A stretch of DNA of 64,000 nucleotides from Flavobacterium sp. (lineage in GTDB: Bacteria; Bacteroidota; Bacteroidia; Flavobacteriales; Flavobacteriaceae), in assembly GCA_016787805.1 (NCBI GenBank), contig JAEUTY010000046.1, positions 30,016-94,015 on the forward strand. The letters are read 5' to 3'. Under the pieces are notes generated by a model. The model was not told where the DNA came from and did not search any database. It worked only from the letters and a program-made list of their open reading frames with translations. Of this stretch, positions 13,707 through 56,260 are shown piece after piece (the first letter of the stretch is position 1; each line of letters begins with the position of its first letter). Made by a program: the position numbers and the translations under genes.

Positions 13707-13915
13707 TTGAAATGCAGGTGTTTTTAGCCCAGATAGTAGCGAAAATCCTTTTGTGATTGGGAATTTGTTTTTTCTTGCTGAAAAAGAGCGACTGGAAGAA
13801 GCTCCTTTTTTGGCTTAGAAAAACCATTTCCAATGGCAAAAGATTGCAGCGAATAGCTGGAATTAGCTTTTCCCTTCGACAAGCTCAGGATGCAATAGTT
13901 TTAATTATAAATTTT

Positions 13916-40985: not shown

Positions 40986-41058
<73 letters not shown>

Positions 41059-49625: not shown

Positions 49626-50330
49626 ATGATGGATGCCATTGTACCTTTATTATCGCTCATCGCTTTGGAAGTCATTTTGGGAATTGACAATATTATTTTC
49701 ATTTCGATACTCGCCGACAAATTACCCGAAAGCCAACGCAATAAACTGCGTTACTGGGGAATTGGTTTGGCTATGTTGATGCGACTGGCTTTACTAGCTT
49801 TAATTTCGTGGATTCTGAAACTTGACACTACTTTGTTTAGCATTTCTAATGTTGATTTTTCGGGAAAAGGAATCATTTTGATTGTTGGAGGATTATTTTT
49901 AATCTACAAAAGCACCAAAGAAATCTACCACAAAACCGAAACACTACAAAATTCAGCAGAAACATCAATCAAAAAAGGAAGTTTTGGACAACTTTTGGGA
50001 GAAGTTATTTTGCTTGATTTGGTTTTTTCAATCGATTCCATTATCACTGCAGTTGGCATGGTTCAAGAACTTTGGGTCATGTATACTGCAGTAATTGTAA
50101 CCGTAATTATAATGCTTTTGGCTTCCAAACCAATTAGCGCTTTTATCACCAAACATCCTTCTTTTAAAATTTTAGCTTTATGTTTTTTAATGATGATTGG
50201 CGTTTCATTAATTGCTGAAGGATTTCAATTCGAAATTCCAAAAGGATACATCTATTTCTCTATGGCTTTTGCCTTTTTAGTTGATGTCATTCAAATGAAA
50301 ACCATTCCAAATCCAACTACTCAAAAATAA
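49626..50330 (+). CDS. TerC-family integral membrane protein
   Basis: 234 aa. LEVILGIDNIIFISILA and LVFSIDSIITAVG are the paired TerC motifs. Its ATG abuts the LRR stop (TAAATG). Confidence 0.85.
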   Translation: MMDAIVPLLSLIALEVILGIDNIIFISILADKLPESQRNKLRYWGIGLAMLMRLALLALISWILKLDTTLFSISNVDFSGKGIILIVGGLFLIYKSTKEIYHKTETLQNSAETSIKKGSFGQLLGEVILLDLVFSIDSIITAVGMVQELWVMYTAVIVTVIIMLLASKPISAFITKHPSFKILALCFLMMIGVSLIAEGFQFEIPKGYIYFSMAFAFLVDVIQMKTIPNPTTQK

Positions 50331-50336
50331 GATATC

Positions 50337-51008
50337 ATGCAACAAATACTTTCAAACATCATCATTTCGGTCAACGACAAATTGTACGTCAAAAACCCTG
50401 AAACCTCTGAGTTAGGCAAAAAAATCATCGAACAAAGTATTATTTTGATTGATGAAATTGGTTTCGAAAATTTTACCTTTAAAAAACTAGGCGAGCGTAT
50501 TGGCTCTAACGAAAGCTCCATTTACCGTTACTTTGAAAGCAAACACAAATTGATGTTATACCTTTCATCATGGTATTGGGGCTGGATTGAATACAAATTG
50601 GTTTTTGCCACCAACAACATTTTTAATCCTTTTGAAAAACTGCGAAAAGGCATTCAAATTGTAACTGAAAAAGTACAAGATGACTCGGCCACTTTACACG
50701 TCAACGAGGCTATTCTGAATAAAATAATCATTGCTGAATTCACCAAAACACTAGTAACCAAAGAAGTTGATGAAGAAAATAAAGAAGGATTTTTCTTGGT
50801 GTACAAACGTGTCATCAATCGATTGGTGGAAATGATTACTGAGGTAAATCCTAAGTATGCCTTTGCTAAAAGTTTGGCTTCTTCAATTGTAGAAGGAGCT
50901 TTACACCAGCATTTTCTGTGTGATCATCTCAAAACCATTACCGATTGCGACGAAAGCATTTCACCCACTGATTTTTACTTGAATTTAGTTGAAAATACTT
51001 TAAAATAA
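50337..51008 (+). CDS. TetR/AcrR-family transcriptional regulator
   Basis: 223 aa with the N-terminal HTH FTFKKLGERIGSNESSIYRYFESKHKL. Confidence 0.75.
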   Translation: MQQILSNIIISVNDKLYVKNPETSELGKKIIEQSIILIDEIGFENFTFKKLGERIGSNESSIYRYFESKHKLMLYLSSWYWGWIEYKLVFATNNIFNPFEKLRKGIQIVTEKVQDDSATLHVNEAILNKIIIAEFTKTLVTKEVDEENKEGFFLVYKRVINRLVEMITEVNPKYAFAKSLASSIVEGALHQHFLCDHLKTITDCDESISPTDFYLNLVENTLK

Positions 51009-51012
51009 AACC

Positions 51013-52680
51013 ATGACACTCACTCCTTTACAACGATTTTACAACCTATTAAAACTCGATCGTAGAGACATTTCACAAATTTTCTTTTACGCTATTTTCG
51101 CTGGTTTGGTGAGTTTATCATTGCCTTTGGGCATACAAGCTATCATCAACCTTATTCAATCGGGAAGAGTTAGTATTTCTTGGATTGTACTTGTATTTAT
51201 AGTGGTAATTGGAGTTGCTTTAGTTGGCATTTTATCGCTGATGCAACTGCGCATTACCGAAAATTTGCAACAAAAAATATTTGTTCGCTCATCGTTTGAA
51301 TTTAGCTATCGATTGCCTAAAATTAAATTCGAAGAATTGTACAACCAATATCCGCCTGAATTGGCCAATCGTTTTTTTGATACGTTAACCATTCAAAAAG
51401 GAACTTCAAAATTGTTGATTGACTTTTCTTCTGCTTTATTGCAAATTGTATTCGGCATTATTCTTTTGTCATTGTACCATCCGTTTTTTATCGTGTTCGG
51501 ATTATTATTGTTGCTTTTACTCTATTCGATTTTCAAATTTTCTTACAACTCCGGACTTTCAAGCAGTTTGAAAGAATCCAAATACAAGTACAAAGTGGTG
51601 AGTTGGTTGCAAGAAATTGCCAGAAATAACTTTAGCTTTCGCAAAAAAGACAACTTTGAGTTTGCACTGGAAAAAAACAACCATTTAGTTGAGGAATACC
51701 TGAATTATCGAGAAAAACACTTTGGCATCATCAAAAGACAATTTACGCAACTCATTGTTTTTAAAGTTATTATTACCGCAAGTTTGCTGTTAATTGGAGG
51801 CTATTTGGTACTGAATCAGAAAATGAATATTGGTCAGTTTGTGGCTGCTGAAATCATTATTTTGTTGGTGATTAATTCGGTAGAAAAAATCATTATTGGA
51901 TTGGAAAGTTTGTACGATGTAATCACTTCTATTGAAAAAATAGGCCAAATTGTTGATTTACAAACAGAAGAACCCAACAGCAAATCCGTTGATTATTGTT
52001 TTACTAACATCAGCCTCGAAGCTGAAAACTTACGCTTTAAGTTTCCCGATTCAAATGATTACGTGATTGATAAAATTAACCTAAAAATCGAGCCTTCTGA
52101 AAAAATTTATCTGGAAGGAAATAATGGTTCAGGAAAAACCACGCTCATCCGAATTTTATCGGGATTATTGCAACCTTCTACTGGTTCGTTTTTCATCAAC
52201 GATGACACGTACCGAAAAATTGATTTAACACAATACCGTTCACAAATTGGCTCCATCATTACAGGCGAAACTCCGTTTGAAGGAACCATCCTAGAAAACC
52301 TAACTTTCAACAACCCAAATGTTCCCTATGAAAATATCAAATGGGCGATTGACAGTGTAAAATTAGGCGATTTTATCAAATCATTACCCAATGGATTAGA
52401 TAGCAAAATTTATCCAGAAGGCAAGCAACTTTCGTCTTCTAACGCTCAAAAAATTCTATTGGCTAGAAGCATCATCAACAAACCAAAAATTTTGTTCTAC
52501 GAAGATCCTTTAGACAAGATGGACGAAGACGCTGCCAAAGAAATCATCGATTTTATCACCGATGAAAAACACCAATGGACCGTAATTGTTTCCTCTAAAA
52601 ACGAGTATTGGAAACAAAAATGCAAGCGAAATATCATTATGAACGAAGGAAAAATTAGTTACGATTCAAAAGTAAATTAA
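51013..52680 (+). CDS. ABC exporter half-transporter (TMD-NBD) with a non-canonical nucleotide-binding domain
   Basis: 555 aa with a 6-TM type-I exporter domain followed by an NBD. Walker A is GNNGSGKTT, but the signature reads LSSSN, Walker B reads ILFYEDP, and the Q-loop and H-loop positions are substituted. Confidence 0.85.
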   Translation: MTLTPLQRFYNLLKLDRRDISQIFFYAIFAGLVSLSLPLGIQAIINLIQSGRVSISWIVLVFIVVIGVALVGILSLMQLRITENLQQKIFVRSSFEFSYRLPKIKFEELYNQYPPELANRFFDTLTIQKGTSKLLIDFSSALLQIVFGIILLSLYHPFFIVFGLLLLLLLYSIFKFSYNSGLSSSLKESKYKYKVVSWLQEIARNNFSFRKKDNFEFALEKNNHLVEEYLNYREKHFGIIKRQFTQLIVFKVIITASLLLIGGYLVLNQKMNIGQFVAAEIIILLVINSVEKIIIGLESLYDVITSIEKIGQIVDLQTEEPNSKSVDYCFTNISLEAENLRFKFPDSNDYVIDKINLKIEPSEKIYLEGNNGSGKTTLIRILSGLLQPSTGSFFINDDTYRKIDLTQYRSQIGSIITGETPFEGTILENLTFNNPNVPYENIKWAIDSVKLGDFIKSLPNGLDSKIYPEGKQLSSSNAQKILLARSIINKPKILFYEDPLDKMDEDAAKEIIDFITDEKHQWTVIVSSKNEYWKQKCKRNIIMNEGKISYDSKVN

Positions 52681-52682
52681 CC

Positions 52683-54029
52683 ATGCTGAATATCTCTAAA
52701 AAAAATCCGATTACCGAAAATATTGACCAATTCAGTTCTGTGCGCAATTTGTCGCATCGTCCGCATTACAAAATCCTAAATCGAATTATTGTTGGCGTAA
52801 CGATTTTGGTCTTCATTATTTTCTTTTTGCCTTGGACGCAAAACATCTCCGGTTCTGGAGCAGTTACAACTTTAAAACCCGATCAACGTCCTCAAACCAT
52901 TCACTCGGCTATTGCTGGACGAATTGAAAAATGGTACGTCAAAGAAGGTGATTACGTCAAAAAAGGCGACACAATTTTGTTCATCTCCGAAATTAAAGAA
53001 GAATATTTCGATCCTAATTTGGTCAACAATACCAAAAGTCAGGTCGATGCCAAAAAAATGGCAGTACAATCGTACGGAAGTAAAGTCAACACACTTTCGG
53101 CTCAAATTGCAGCTATCGAAAACGAAAAAGAATTAAAACTGCAACAAGCCAAAAATAAAATCCGTCAATCGCTGCTCAAAGTCAAAAGCGACAGTATGGA
53201 TTTGGAAGCAGTAAAAACACAAATCAAAATTGCCACTACGCAATTCAATCGCTCGGTTACACTCAACAAAGAAGGATTAAAACCATTGACCGATGTGGAA
53301 GAAAAACGGCTAAAATTGCAAGAAGTAGAAGCCAAAATCATCACACAAGAAAACAAATTATTGGCCAGCCGAAACGAATTAATCAATGCCAAAGTCGAAG
53401 TCAACCGAATCTCAGCCGAATATGCAGAAAAAGCATCCAAAGCCAAAAGCGATCAATATACAGCCTTGAGCAGTCAATACGACACCGAAGCGCAAGTCAA
53501 CAAATTGCAGAATCAATACGTGAATTACCAAATTCGCAATGGCATGTATTACATCAAAGCACCACAAAATGGCTACGTAAACCGTGCGTTGCAATCGGGA
53601 ATTGGTGAGACTATCAAAGAAGGAACGCAAATTGTGAGCATCATGCCTGAGAAATACGATATTGCCGTTGAAACTTACGTCTCTCCTACCGATTTGCCTT
53701 TAATTCACAAAGGCGAAAAAGTACGTGTTTGGTTCGATGGTTGGCCAACTGTAGTATTTTCGGGTTGGCCGAATATGAGCTACGGAACCTTTGGTGGAAA
53801 AATTGTTGCGGTTGAAAATTTTATTAGTCCCAATGGCAAGTTCAGGGTTTTGATTGCACCCGACGAAAACGAAGCTCCTTGGCCAAAACAAGTCAGCATT
53901 GGTTCTGGCGCGCAAACTTTAGCGCTGCTCGACAACGTTCCTGTTTGGTTTGAATTGTGGCGTACACTCAACGGTTTTCCGCCCAATTATTATCAACCAC
54001 AAAACAAAGCAACAACAGATAAAAAGTGA
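52683..54029 (+). CDS. HlyD-family secretion/membrane-fusion protein
   Basis: 448 aa with an N-terminal TM anchor, a biotinyl-lipoyl-like motif (GDYVKKGDTILFI), a long coiled coil and a C-terminal barrel. Confidence 0.85.
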   Translation: MLNISKKNPITENIDQFSSVRNLSHRPHYKILNRIIVGVTILVFIIFFLPWTQNISGSGAVTTLKPDQRPQTIHSAIAGRIEKWYVKEGDYVKKGDTILFISEIKEEYFDPNLVNNTKSQVDAKKMAVQSYGSKVNTLSAQIAAIENEKELKLQQAKNKIRQSLLKVKSDSMDLEAVKTQIKIATTQFNRSVTLNKEGLKPLTDVEEKRLKLQEVEAKIITQENKLLASRNELINAKVEVNRISAEYAEKASKAKSDQYTALSSQYDTEAQVNKLQNQYVNYQIRNGMYYIKAPQNGYVNRALQSGIGETIKEGTQIVSIMPEKYDIAVETYVSPTDLPLIHKGEKVRVWFDGWPTVVFSGWPNMSYGTFGGKIVAVENFISPNGKFRVLIAPDENEAPWPKQVSIGSGAQTLALLDNVPVWFELWRTLNGFPPNYYQPQNKATTDKK

Positions 54030-54172: not shown

Positions 54173-55555
54173 ATGAATTTTAAAGTACTTTTTTTTATTC
54201 TATTGACCACTTGGGCTTCGGCTCAAACTTCCAATGTACTCACTTACAACGAGTATTTGGGTTATGTGAAAAAGTTTCATCCTATGGTCAAAAGCGCCAA
54301 TTTGCAAGTCAGTAGCGCGCAAGCCAATTTGATGATGGCTCGCGGTGGTTTTGATCCTAAAATTGAAGTTGATTTTGACCAAAAGCAATTCAAAGACAAA
54401 GAATATTACTCGCTACTCAACAGCAGTTTCAAAATTCCAACTTGGTACGGAATCGAAATCAAAGCTGGATTTGACAATAGTGAAGGCATTTACGTCAATC
54501 CGCAAAACACCTTACCCAATCAAGGTTTAACTTCTCTCGGAATCAATGTTCCAATTGGTCAAGGTTTATTAATCAACCAACGAATGGCCGATTTACGCAA
54601 GGCCAAAATTCAGGTACAACTGAGCGAAGCCGAGCGTAAACTGCAAGCCGTTGAAGTAGTGTATGACGCTTCTGTTGCTTATTTCAATTGGAAACGCAAT
54701 TACAATGAAGTAGAATTGTACAAAAACTATTTAAAAAATGCCAAAATCCGATTCAATGGAATTGAACAATTGATCAAAAACGGAGACAAGCCTGCTATAG
54801 ATAGTGTTGAAGCAGGCATTATTGTTCGTAACCGTCAACTCAGTTTAGAAGAATCGGAGTTGAAATTAGCCAAAGCCAAACTAGAATTAGCTAATTTTTT
54901 ATGGTTAGATAATAACATTCCTTTAGAGTTGCAAGACACTATCATTCCGGAAGAAAATTTGGAACAAACCATCAAAGAAACCTTGCGTACAAATGATTTA
55001 ATGCTCGCCAATCCAGTAATTGACAATCATCCGAAAATTGATGCTTTGGAAAACAAAATCGGTATTTTAGAAATTGACCGCAAGCTCAAAGCCAATCAGT
55101 TATTGCCGAAAATTGATTTAGGTTACCATTATCTATCAGAACCCAACGCATTTTCGTCTACTGACTTTAACAATTATAAATTGGGCGTGAATTTTAGCTT
55201 TCCCATTTTCTTACGCAAAGAACGAGGCAGTTTGAAAATAACCGAGTTTAAATTGCAAGACACGCAATATGAACTCCGTTTACAAAAAGTGCAATTAACC
55301 AATAAAATTAATGCACAACAAACTGAAATCAATGCATTGGAACGGCAACGAAAATTAATTAACAATTTGGTTAGCGATTATGCTACTATGTTAAATTCAG
55401 AAGAACGTTTGTTTTCGTTTGGCGAAAGTTCCATTTTTTTGATTAATTCGCGTGAAAACAATTTGGTAAGTGCCCAATTATCGCAATTGAGCCTAGAAAA
55501 TCGCTTTTTCACTTCCAATGCTACATTGTTTAAAATTATGGCGAACCCAGATTAA
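54173..55555 (+). CDS. TolC-family outer membrane protein
   Basis: 460 aa with a signal peptide (LLTTWASAQ) and two coiled-coil/beta repeats. It is the last gene of the exporter array. Confidence 0.8.
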   Translation: MNFKVLFFILLTTWASAQTSNVLTYNEYLGYVKKFHPMVKSANLQVSSAQANLMMARGGFDPKIEVDFDQKQFKDKEYYSLLNSSFKIPTWYGIEIKAGFDNSEGIYVNPQNTLPNQGLTSLGINVPIGQGLLINQRMADLRKAKIQVQLSEAERKLQAVEVVYDASVAYFNWKRNYNEVELYKNYLKNAKIRFNGIEQLIKNGDKPAIDSVEAGIIVRNRQLSLEESELKLAKAKLELANFLWLDNNIPLELQDTIIPEENLEQTIKETLRTNDLMLANPVIDNHPKIDALENKIGILEIDRKLKANQLLPKIDLGYHYLSEPNAFSSTDFNNYKLGVNFSFPIFLRKERGSLKITEFKLQDTQYELRLQKVQLTNKINAQQTEINALERQRKLINNLVSDYATMLNSEERLFSFGESSIFLINSRENNLVSAQLSQLSLENRFFTSNATLFKIMANPD

Positions 55556-55675: not shown

Positions 55676-56260
55676 ATGAACACTGTTAAAATTTATCCTG
55701 GTGAAGAGTTTAAAGAAATTGAACTCGAAGACAAATTAATTTTTCGTTATGCCATTTCCAACAGAGGTCGTCTTATAAGTTTTACAGACGATATGAAGAA
55801 AGGACGTCTTTTGAAAGGAAGTACGGCAGATGGTTACAAGTTATTCCGTTATAAATTTGTTAGAAATGGGGTAACTGTCAATAAAAATTATTTTTTATAC
55901 AAATTAGTTGCCAAGTATTTCCTTCCGCCACCAACAGAAAATCAAGTTCAAGTATTGCACTTGGACCGAGTAAGAGACAATGATGATTACCGTAACTTGC
56001 GTTGGGCGACCAAAGAAGAAGCCATGGAATTTTACCGCAACAGTCCATTTGTAATTCAAGCAAAGAAAAATTTGATTGAACACAACATCAAATCAGATGG
56101 TAAAAAACTCACCGTTACCAAAGTGATGTTAATTAAAAAACTATTGGCAAAACCCAACCAAAAAACACGCCTAAAAATGATTGCAAAGCAATTTGGCGTA
56201 AGCGAAATGCAAATCAGAAGAATTAAAAGTGGGGAAAATTGGGGGCATATTAAAATTTAA
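55676..56260 (+). CDS. Free-standing NUMOD4 / HNH_3-like homing-endonuclease-type protein with a C-terminal HTH
   Basis: 194 aa with a NUMOD4-like start (EEFKEIE...YAISNRGRLIS), an HNH_3-like core (VLHLDRVRDNDDYRNLRW) and the C-terminal FGVSEMQIRRIKSGENWGHI. Confidence 0.55.
   Translation: MNTVKIYPGEEFKEIELEDKLIFRYAISNRGRLISFTDDMKKGRLLKGSTADGYKLFRYKFVRNGVTVNKNYFLYKLVAKYFLPPPTENQVQVLHLDRVRDNDDYRNLRWATKEEAMEFYRNSPFVIQAKKNLIEHNIKSDGKKLTVTKVMLIKKLLAKPNQKTRLKMIAKQFGVSEMQIRRIKSGENWGHIKI

Follow-up and report, generated by a model that had tools for sequence, protein, structure and literature searches.

We analysed a stretch of 64,000 nucleotides of Flavobacterium sp. (assembly GCA_016787805.1, contig JAEUTY010000046.1, positions 30,016 to 94,015), referred to here as the window. 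The subject is a gene for a protein of the ATP-binding cassette (ABC) exporter type that lies between the genes for a TetR-family regulator and a HlyD-type adaptor. The catalytic elements of its nucleotide-binding domain (NBD) are replaced, and the protein may represent a family of exporters in which this domain has become a pseudo-ATPase.

Genes of the locus

The ABC gene is part of an unbroken run on the + strand that encodes, in order, TerC, TetR, the ABC protein, the adaptor and a TolC-type outer-membrane factor, with gaps of 6, 4, 2 and 143 nt (Table 1). A promoter and terminator scan, which is uninformative for Bacteroidota promoters, identified no terminator-like sites on the + strand within this run. 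No further ABC domain was identified in the window, in agreement with a preliminary description of the locus in which this was the only ABC protein of the exporter module, with its gene between tetR and hlyD. The adaptor has a short cytoplasmic N-terminus and one transmembrane (TM) helix. Among NCBIfam models, the HlyD model of type I secretion systems (T1SS; TIGR01843) ranks first at 91 bits, which is below its cut-off. The best solved relative of the adaptor by sequence is EmrA (4tko, E = 2e-6), not E. coli HlyD.

The TetR-ABC-HlyD-TolC order is essentially invariant in 80 Flavobacterium genome loci (74-98% identity). A further 87 loci (from metagenomes and look-ups, with identity down to ~44%) include 43 with the complete four-gene order, and the others have truncated versions of it. 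Clustering of flanking open reading frames (ORFs) in 91 diverse loci recovered four conserved families, the ABC protein (91 loci), the adaptor (82), the outer-membrane factor (67; many of the loci end at a contig edge) and TetR (62). A TetR homologue directly precedes the ABC gene in 62 of the 91 diverse loci and in nearly all 80 Flavobacterium loci. We did not identify a conserved cargo gene or a fifth module gene in these 91 loci, where the next commonest neighbour family occurs 13 times. In ~2 Mb of sequence flanking the 167 loci there are only two extra ORFs with an NBD, a canonical half-transporter (locus L150) and a 188-amino-acid NBD (L167). With respect to half-transporters, 166 of the 167 loci have a single ABC gene. 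The exception is L150, a Chitinophagales-like contig on which a canonical ABCB-type half-transporter (positions 1-1587, + strand; LSGGE, LIFDEATS, LIAHR) is encoded 1.8 kb upstream of the family member.

Table 1. Genes, protein domains and motifs of the export module and adjoining genes. Positions are nucleotides of the window; aa, amino acids; TMD, transmembrane domain.
Feature	Position	Strand	Remarks
TerC-family membrane protein gene	49626-50330	+	6 nt upstream of TetR start
TetR-family regulator gene	50337-51008	+	Pfam TetR_N, 1.3e-08; stop codon 4 nt before ABC start codon
ABC protein gene	51013-52680	+	555 aa; ATG start
TMD of ABC protein	51013-51987	+	aa 1-325; six long helices, predicted type IV exporter fold
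NBD of ABC protein	52015-52677	+	aa 335-555; PF00005, 72.8 bits
A-loop aromatic residue, F344	52042-52044	+	Aligned to A-loop Tyr of ABCB1
Walker A (P-loop), GNNGSGKTT	52117-52143	+	Intact; aa 369-377; K375 is the Walker A Lys
Q-loop, IGSIITGE	52246-52269	+	T417 at Gln position (ABCB1 alignment)
Post-Q-loop stretch, F.GT..EN	52276-52299	+	Highly conserved; N429 invariant
Signature position, LSSSN	52429-52443	+	aa 473-477; in place of LSGGQ
Walker B, ILFYEDP	52489-52509	+	ILFYED (aa 493-498) under ILLLDE; E497 at Asp, D498 at catalytic Glu
D-loop, LDKMD	52510-52524	+	Aligned to SALD of ABCB1; final Asp in 116 of 161 module orthologues
H-loop, TVIVSSK	52579-52599	+	K529 at His position (ABCB1 alignment)
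HlyD/EmrA-family membrane-fusion (periplasmic adaptor) protein	52683-54029	+	Pfam Biotin_lipoyl_2, HlyD_3, HlyD_D23; start 2 nt past ABC stop codon
TolC-type outer-membrane factor with signal peptide	54173-55555	+	Pfam OEP, 4.9e-39, two repeats
ORF with NUMOD4 and HNH_3 domains (homing-endonuclease type)	55676-56260	+	194 aa; directly downstream of TolC gene

Given the 6 nt gap, TerC is possibly co-transcribed with the module. It adjoins the module in only ~33 of the 80 Flavobacterium loci, and thus is not part of the conserved module. With a homologue in only two of the 80 related Flavobacterium loci, the NUMOD4/HNH_3 ORF resembles a mobile element that was inserted recently. Rfam matches in the window are limited to a Flavo-1 RNA (63.7 bits) and a single tRNA, at 13722-13867 (+) and 40986-41058 (-), and neither is near the module. 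One related locus (L071, contig CALPUN020000156.1) comes from a metagenome-assembled genome labelled Bifidobacterium breve that carries a Flavobacterium-type gene (77% identity). This is probably a binning contaminant.

Fold and domain architecture of the ABC protein

The gene product is predicted to be a full HlyB/PCAT-type ABC half-transporter with the type IV exporter fold. The AlphaFold2 model, built from a 96-sequence family alignment (mean pLDDT 94.2, pTM 0.88), has six long TM helices and a complete NBD. Short helices at residues 106-109 and 206-209 are located where coupling helices are expected. In a Foldseek comparison with the PDB, the full-length model matches ATP-bound HlyB (TM-score 0.91), the PCAT1 core (0.90), TmrAB (0.90) and PrtD (0.82), as well as TM287/288 and Sav1866, with overall TM-scores of 0.8-0.9.

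Sequence profiles match less well. The Pfam ABC_tran score (PF00005, cut-off 25) is 72.8 bits, compared with 122 bits for a canonical half-transporter from Bacteroidota that served as control, and ABC_membrane (PF00664) is slightly below its cut-off of 28 at 25.7 bits. The best NCBIfam matches are to type I secretion and bacteriocin-exporter families, and all are far under cut-off (in bits, TIGR03375 LssB 194.8 against 693.1, TIGR01846 HlyB 150 against 725.6, and TIGR01842 PrtD 140 against 510.2; for the PCAT models, TIGR01193 130.1 against 523.9 and TIGR03796 161.6 against 853.3). All of these alignments start at about profile position 140, which indicates that there is no N-terminal peptidase or C39-like domain. 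Consistent with this, there is no Pfam match to Peptidase_C39 in the protein, which begins at TM1, and the PCAT profiles align from ~144-148. There is also no Pfam match to SbmA_BacA at E <= 0.01. A sequence search with the TMD against solved structures found only PrtD (E = 0.0024), which precluded residue-level transfer of pathway positions.

Motifs of the nucleotide-binding domain

The motif register was taken from a phmmer alignment against PDB sequences (ABCB1), and the nucleotide coordinates agree with re-translation. Judged from its sequence, the NBD retains the fold and the nucleotide-binding elements, and the catalytic elements are replaced. The preliminary description had read the same substitutions, together with an intact Walker A motif, from a manual alignment. 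The phmmer alignment puts each of them at the same position, with no canonical residues in register, and rules out that the manual alignment was wrong.

Extent of the family and motif degeneracy

A search of 1.84 billion cluster representatives returned at least 150 family matches (E <= 1e-113, 36-69% identity). The family thus comprises at least 150 clusters at 50% identity, and we refer to the 150 best-scoring cluster representatives as the deep set. Canonical exporters score far lower against the window protein (solved PDB exporters ~110-180 bits). Annotated family members belong to Flavobacteriales, Bacteroidia and Bacteroidota and have generic names only. We assign the protein to a large, unnamed Bacteroidota clade that appears to derive from type I secretion/PCAT-like ABC exporters. 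The earlier suggestion of an uncharacterised Bacteroidota exporter subclass is supported by the size of the family and by the absence of an NCBIfam model that matches at cut-off. In the searchable full-text literature we found neither a description of the family nor a report of any homodimeric ABC exporter in which both sites are degenerate.

Four samples were pooled to give 528 unique full-length family sequences. The SGG core of the signature is present in 0.6% of these, the Asp-Glu pair of Walker B in 3.4% and the H-loop His in 2.7%. No sequence of the 528 combines Asp-Glu with His, or SGG with Asp-Glu and His, and thus no orthologues with canonical motifs were found among them; such orthologues would have implied decay in the window lineage alone. 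Glu-Asp is the consensus at Walker B (341/528). The signature differs by subclade (LSSSN, LP[RK]S[IV], MSYTI), and the H-loop His position is occupied by Lys, Ser, Asn or Ala across the family. Walker A (G..GK) is retained in 92% of the 528 sequences and the A-loop aromatic residue in 85%. Phe or Tyr is found at the A-loop in all 120 sequences of the profile set, and the Walker A Lys in 158 of 161 module orthologues.

At the Walker B Asp position, 22 of the 161 module orthologues (loci L081-L167) have Lys (e.g., LLILKDP), with Lys or Arg in ~14% of them, and 8 of the 120 profile sequences have Arg or Lys. A Lys at position 497 should abolish Mg2+ coordination, although the Walker A Lys is still kept there. 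A compensating positive charge was considered and rejected: among 148 diverse representatives, 93 have neither Arg or Lys in the signature nor Lys, Arg or His at the H-loop position.

Some members are longer. An extra N-terminal domain of ~160 amino acids is present in ~58 of 145 family representatives (700-776 amino acids; P0126, P0131, P0133, P0139, P0146, P0164, P0182 and P0226, for example, and loci L081-L083). This extension has no Pfam match, including to Peptidase_C39 at E <= 1. One long form (P0279) is an orphan beside dnaG, without adaptor or TolC genes. Upstream of another (P0126) we identified an Acetyltransf_5 gene (PF13444) and two PF01553 acyltransferase genes (L081:594-3827). 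This set resembles genes for amino-acid-lipid synthesis and could perhaps point to a lipid substrate; it was not found in the other loci inspected.

Selection and conservation of the two domains

The ratio of non-synonymous to synonymous substitution rates (dN/dS), from 130 orthologue pairs with 0.05 < dS < 1.2, is 0.048 overall, with values of 0.039 in the TMD and 0.063 in the NBD. Non-synonymous change is 1.9x faster in the NBD than in the TMD. In the diverse family set, paired sequences share 46% identity over the TMD and 28% over the NBD; in the close family set the values are 92.2% and 85.6%, respectively. The TMD is thus far more conserved than the NBD, the reverse of normal ABC exporters, in which the NBD is the part conserved best (review PMC7756269). 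In the canonical Bacteroidota ABCB-type control (from L150), the corresponding identities are 80.4% and 83.5%, and all catalytic motifs are invariant. Lineage-specific decay of the motifs is ruled out by the family-wide degeneracy together with strong purifying selection.

Of the 325 TMD positions, 86 are conserved in at least 80% of the diverse set, compared with 14 of the 220 NBD positions. The latter comprise structural glycines, the glycines of Walker A, the TMD-facing residues F422, G424 and N429, and R485 and P491. Family-invariant TMD residues include L35, P38, E83, K129, S189, K192, W198, G262, E280 and K309. Conserved polar or charged positions are found in or beside the membrane helices (Q42, E83, D137, Q144, Y155-H156, K251, E280, E291-K292) and in the cytoplasmic helix extensions (R120, K129, K133, E188, K192, R233, D302, K309). 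The invariant acidic residues E83, E280, E291 and D302 are present with Lys and Arg partners.

For counts at single positions we used a close set of 90 relatives at >=70% identity. In this set, F/Y344 of the A-loop and E497 are present in all 90 sequences, K529 in 89, and K375 of Walker A and the LSSSN signature in 88 each. D498 is present in 83, and the other seven have Glu. Conservation of the Thr, SSSN, Glu-Asp and Lys substitutions under purifying selection, raised in the preliminary description, is therefore found for LSSSN, the Glu-Asp pair and the Lys. The Q-loop Thr does not share it, as position 417 is hypervariable (Gln 31, Thr 16, His 11, Asn 11, Ile 11, Ser 7).

Recurrent loss of the P-loop

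In 37 of the 150 deep representatives, as scored by the Gly-Lys criterion only, the Walker A Lys is replaced (by Arg, Gln, Thr or Cys) or the whole P-loop is erased. Examples of altered or erased P-loops are SNDSRVGNA, TENETLIRQ, SEDSDAYRY, YENQMLVRT and KYNATEKNV. At least 30 independent changes are needed to account for these losses on a neighbour-joining tree of the TMD. Pfam ABC_tran scores of P-loop-less proteins are 33, 31, 21.5 and 19.7 bits, and one protein (P0198) has no match. Of the 25 family-invariant residues, the relatives with a defective P-loop retain 21-25, in most cases 24 or 25. A model of one of these (P0188), built from Walker-A-defective sequences only, has a folded NBD region (pLDDT 87-94) and gives a full-length match to ABC exporters.

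The module was retained in three of the four P-loop-less loci that were fetched, as TetR-ABC-adaptor-outer-membrane factor in one (P0188) and as ABC-adaptor-outer-membrane factor in two (P0237 and P0259). In the fourth (P0204), the contig ends after the next gene. Because P-loop-less relatives keep the invariant residues and the module, it appears that the family cannot require its own NBD to bind or hydrolyse ATP for the function under selection. This result goes beyond the preliminary description, which covered the window sequence only and had considered a poorly hydrolysing ATP gate. Given P-loop loss in so many relatives, the emphasis moves to a core function that would not need its own ATPase.

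Comparison with known transporters

The likeness to T1SS ABC proteins (HlyB, PrtD and LssB) lies in the type IV exporter fold and in the order of components, with the ABC protein followed by a TM-anchored adaptor and an outer-membrane factor. However, the window protein scores far under the cut-offs of these families, has non-canonical catalytic motifs, is without the N-terminal C39-like domain, and has a TetR gene attached. Furthermore, its module has no linked RTX-type or other cargo gene in the 91 diverse loci, although unlinked substrates are possible. The TMD of the window family has its own set of invariant residues, which is absent from the solved proteins. PCATs (PCAT1, ComA, LagD), the source of the name given to orthologues in public annotation, are similar in fold (TM-score 0.90) and in sequence. 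Unlike these, the window protein has no peptidase domain, its catalytic motifs are absent, and there is no gene for a double-glycine peptide nearby.

Similar substitutions are found in heterodimeric exporters (TM287/288, TmrAB, TAP1/2, BmrCD and MsRv1273c/72c), where the catalytic Glu is changed to Asp, the H-loop His is replaced, and the signature is non-consensus. ATP bound at degenerate sites of this kind serves as a stable hinge and not as fuel, and no degenerate site has been described without an active one as its partner (PMC7756269). Those transporters are encoded by two genes and keep one active site, whereas the window protein has all of the degenerate elements in one gene, and both sites of the presumed homodimer would be degenerate. 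CFTR and SUR are further cases in which the ABC exporter fold has been repurposed from ATP-powered pumping, with nucleotide binding as a gate or sensor. However, these are eukaryotic full-length proteins that keep one hydrolytic site and have no envelope-spanning partners.

Transport without ATP has precedents. SbmA/BacA has an ABC-exporter-like TMD without an NBD and is proton-driven via a conserved ladder of glutamates paired with Lys or Arg (PMC8442886; PMC13316013), and LmrA without its NBD can use a proton gradient (PMC8442886). The window family likewise has invariant Glu, Lys and Arg in or near the membrane helices. SbmA, on the other hand, is an importer that has wholly lost the NBD and coupling helices and has no adaptor or TolC, whereas the window protein has a folded NBD, a conserved coupling region and an export module. 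EmrAB-TolC shares a repressor-linked operon, a TM-anchored adaptor of the HlyD/EmrA family and an outer-membrane factor, and its energisation is ATP-independent. It differs in that the inner-membrane protein is of the MFS type and the regulator of the MarR type, as opposed to the ABC fold and TetR-type regulator of the window module.

In architecture the protein works most like a T1SS or an EmrAB-type tripartite exporter. It falls outside the curated T1SS and PCAT families, and it is not a transporter of the SbmA/BacA (SLiPT) type.

Proposed function and alternatives

We consider it somewhat probable, from the sequence comparisons, that the window protein is a pseudo-ATPase ABC exporter. It would be the inner-membrane part of a TetR-linked tripartite exporter with a non-catalytic NBD, and transport would be energised in another way. 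The ABC-fold protein, the HlyD/EmrA-type adaptor and the TolC-type channel would together form an envelope exporter, probably under the control of TetR. The TMD would be the constrained functional core of the protein, and the NBD would have turned into a pseudo-ATPase. A homodimer seems most likely, and both of its composite nucleotide sites would then be without a catalytic apparatus. The conservation of a module with one ABC gene across ~250 loci is in keeping with the earlier view that a single gene implies two degenerate sites.

In the Flavobacterium lineage, in which the P-loop and the A-loop aromatic residue are kept, the NBD probably still binds ATP or ADP. It may serve as a dimerisation or regulatory switch that hydrolyses very slowly or not at all and is coupled to the TMD (residues F422, G424 and N429 of the coupling region are conserved). 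Energy for export would most plausibly come from the proton or electrochemical gradient via the invariant charged residues of the TMD, as in EmrAB-TolC and SbmA. EmrA, to which the adaptor is closest among solved proteins, likewise belongs to an MFS pump driven by protons. The substrate is probably a small molecule or lipid, because there is no linked cargo gene and the regulator is of the TetR type. We infer ATP binding, the absence of hydrolysis, the dimeric state and the energy source of the ABC protein from sequence. More tentatively, we suggest that this is an ABC-fold exporter without ATP hydrolysis that runs as a secondary transporter driven by protons or membrane potential, or as a nucleotide-gated conduit that feeds the adaptor-TolC duct.

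Some points weigh against a pseudo-ATPase. The fixed E497-D498-K529-LSSSN set of the Flavobacterium clade would be just as consistent with a functional active site of a non-canonical type. The Glu-Glu pair in seven of the 90 close relatives restores Glu at the catalytic position. In addition, the sample consists of the 150 best-scoring representatives and close relatives, and more distant members might be canonical.

The alternative that survives best, which we nevertheless regard as unlikely, is a real ATP-driven pump in the Flavobacterium clade. Export would be powered, as in HlyB, by ATP hydrolysis at a rewired active site, with Mg2+ bound by E497, D498 as the base, K529 in place of His as the sensor of the gamma-phosphate, and the Ser-rich LSSSN in contact with phosphate. 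The near invariance of these residues in the 90 closest relatives, an NBD dN/dS of 0.063, and the intact Walker A and A-loop are all in line with such a site, as is an acidic pair that is kept with only its order swapped, in the consensus of the whole family. Family-wide, however, the supposed catalytic positions are unconstrained (the signature, the His position, and the Walker B Asp position with its Lys or Arg), and no rule for a compensating basic residue was found. A quarter of the deep lineages are without the Walker A Lys, yet have the module. Furthermore, the change of the catalytic Glu to Asp in ABCB1 leaves only residual ATPase activity (review PMC7756269).

A passive scaffold is improbable. 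The protein would carry no substrate itself, but would, as a scaffold or plug, assemble or gate the adaptor-TolC duct on behalf of another transporter, or would be a remnant near loss. The absent catalytic residues, the non-synonymous rate of the NBD relative to the TMD, and the loss of the P-loop in some relatives are compatible with this idea. A remnant is nevertheless excluded, since dN/dS is 0.04-0.06, every lineage has a full-length ORF, and 86 TMD positions are >=80% conserved at ~40% identity. Against a scaffold are the conserved polar and charged residues in or near the membrane helices (E83, Q144, K251, E280, E291 and K292), which are as expected for a translocation or coupling path, and the lack of any other transporter gene conserved in the module.

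The genes of known heterodimer partners are adjacent. Pairing with a canonical ABC half-transporter whose gene lies elsewhere in the genome, and which would supply one active site, is the least probable of the alternatives: it would fit the finding that no degenerate sites are known outside heterodimers and full-length transporters with one remaining active site (PMC7756269) and the canonical neighbour in one of 167 loci (L150), but the degenerate Walker B, H-loop and signature on one chain would make both composite sites non-canonical with any partner, no other linked second half-transporter was found in the ~2 Mb of flanks, and the highly distinctive TMD, with PrtD as its only solved match, argues for self-pairing. 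The need for an unlinked partner, also considered in the preliminary description, is disfavoured on the same grounds.

Implications

ABC exporters are defined by ATP hydrolysis. If the proposed reading of the family as pseudo-ATPase exporters is correct, the membrane domain of an ABC exporter would be able to do useful work without its own ATPase. The family would stand, as a living intermediate, between true ABC exporters and SbmA-like secondary transporters that have no NBD, with lineages caught at successive stages of NBD decay (P-loop intact, Lys lost, P-loop erased). It would therefore bear on two matters under debate, the ability of ABC membrane domains to act as secondary transporters (as for the LmrA membrane domain and SbmA) and the contribution of ATP binding by itself to the transport cycle.

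The public annotation of orthologues as "peptidase domain-containing ABC transporter" is misleading and would be corrected. The module would be a TetR-regulated export route, so far unstudied, that is widely shared by Flavobacteriia and other Bacteroidota, fish pathogens and environmental strains among them. For tripartite efflux, the family would provide a fourth type of inner-membrane engine, beside RND, MFS and true ABC proteins.

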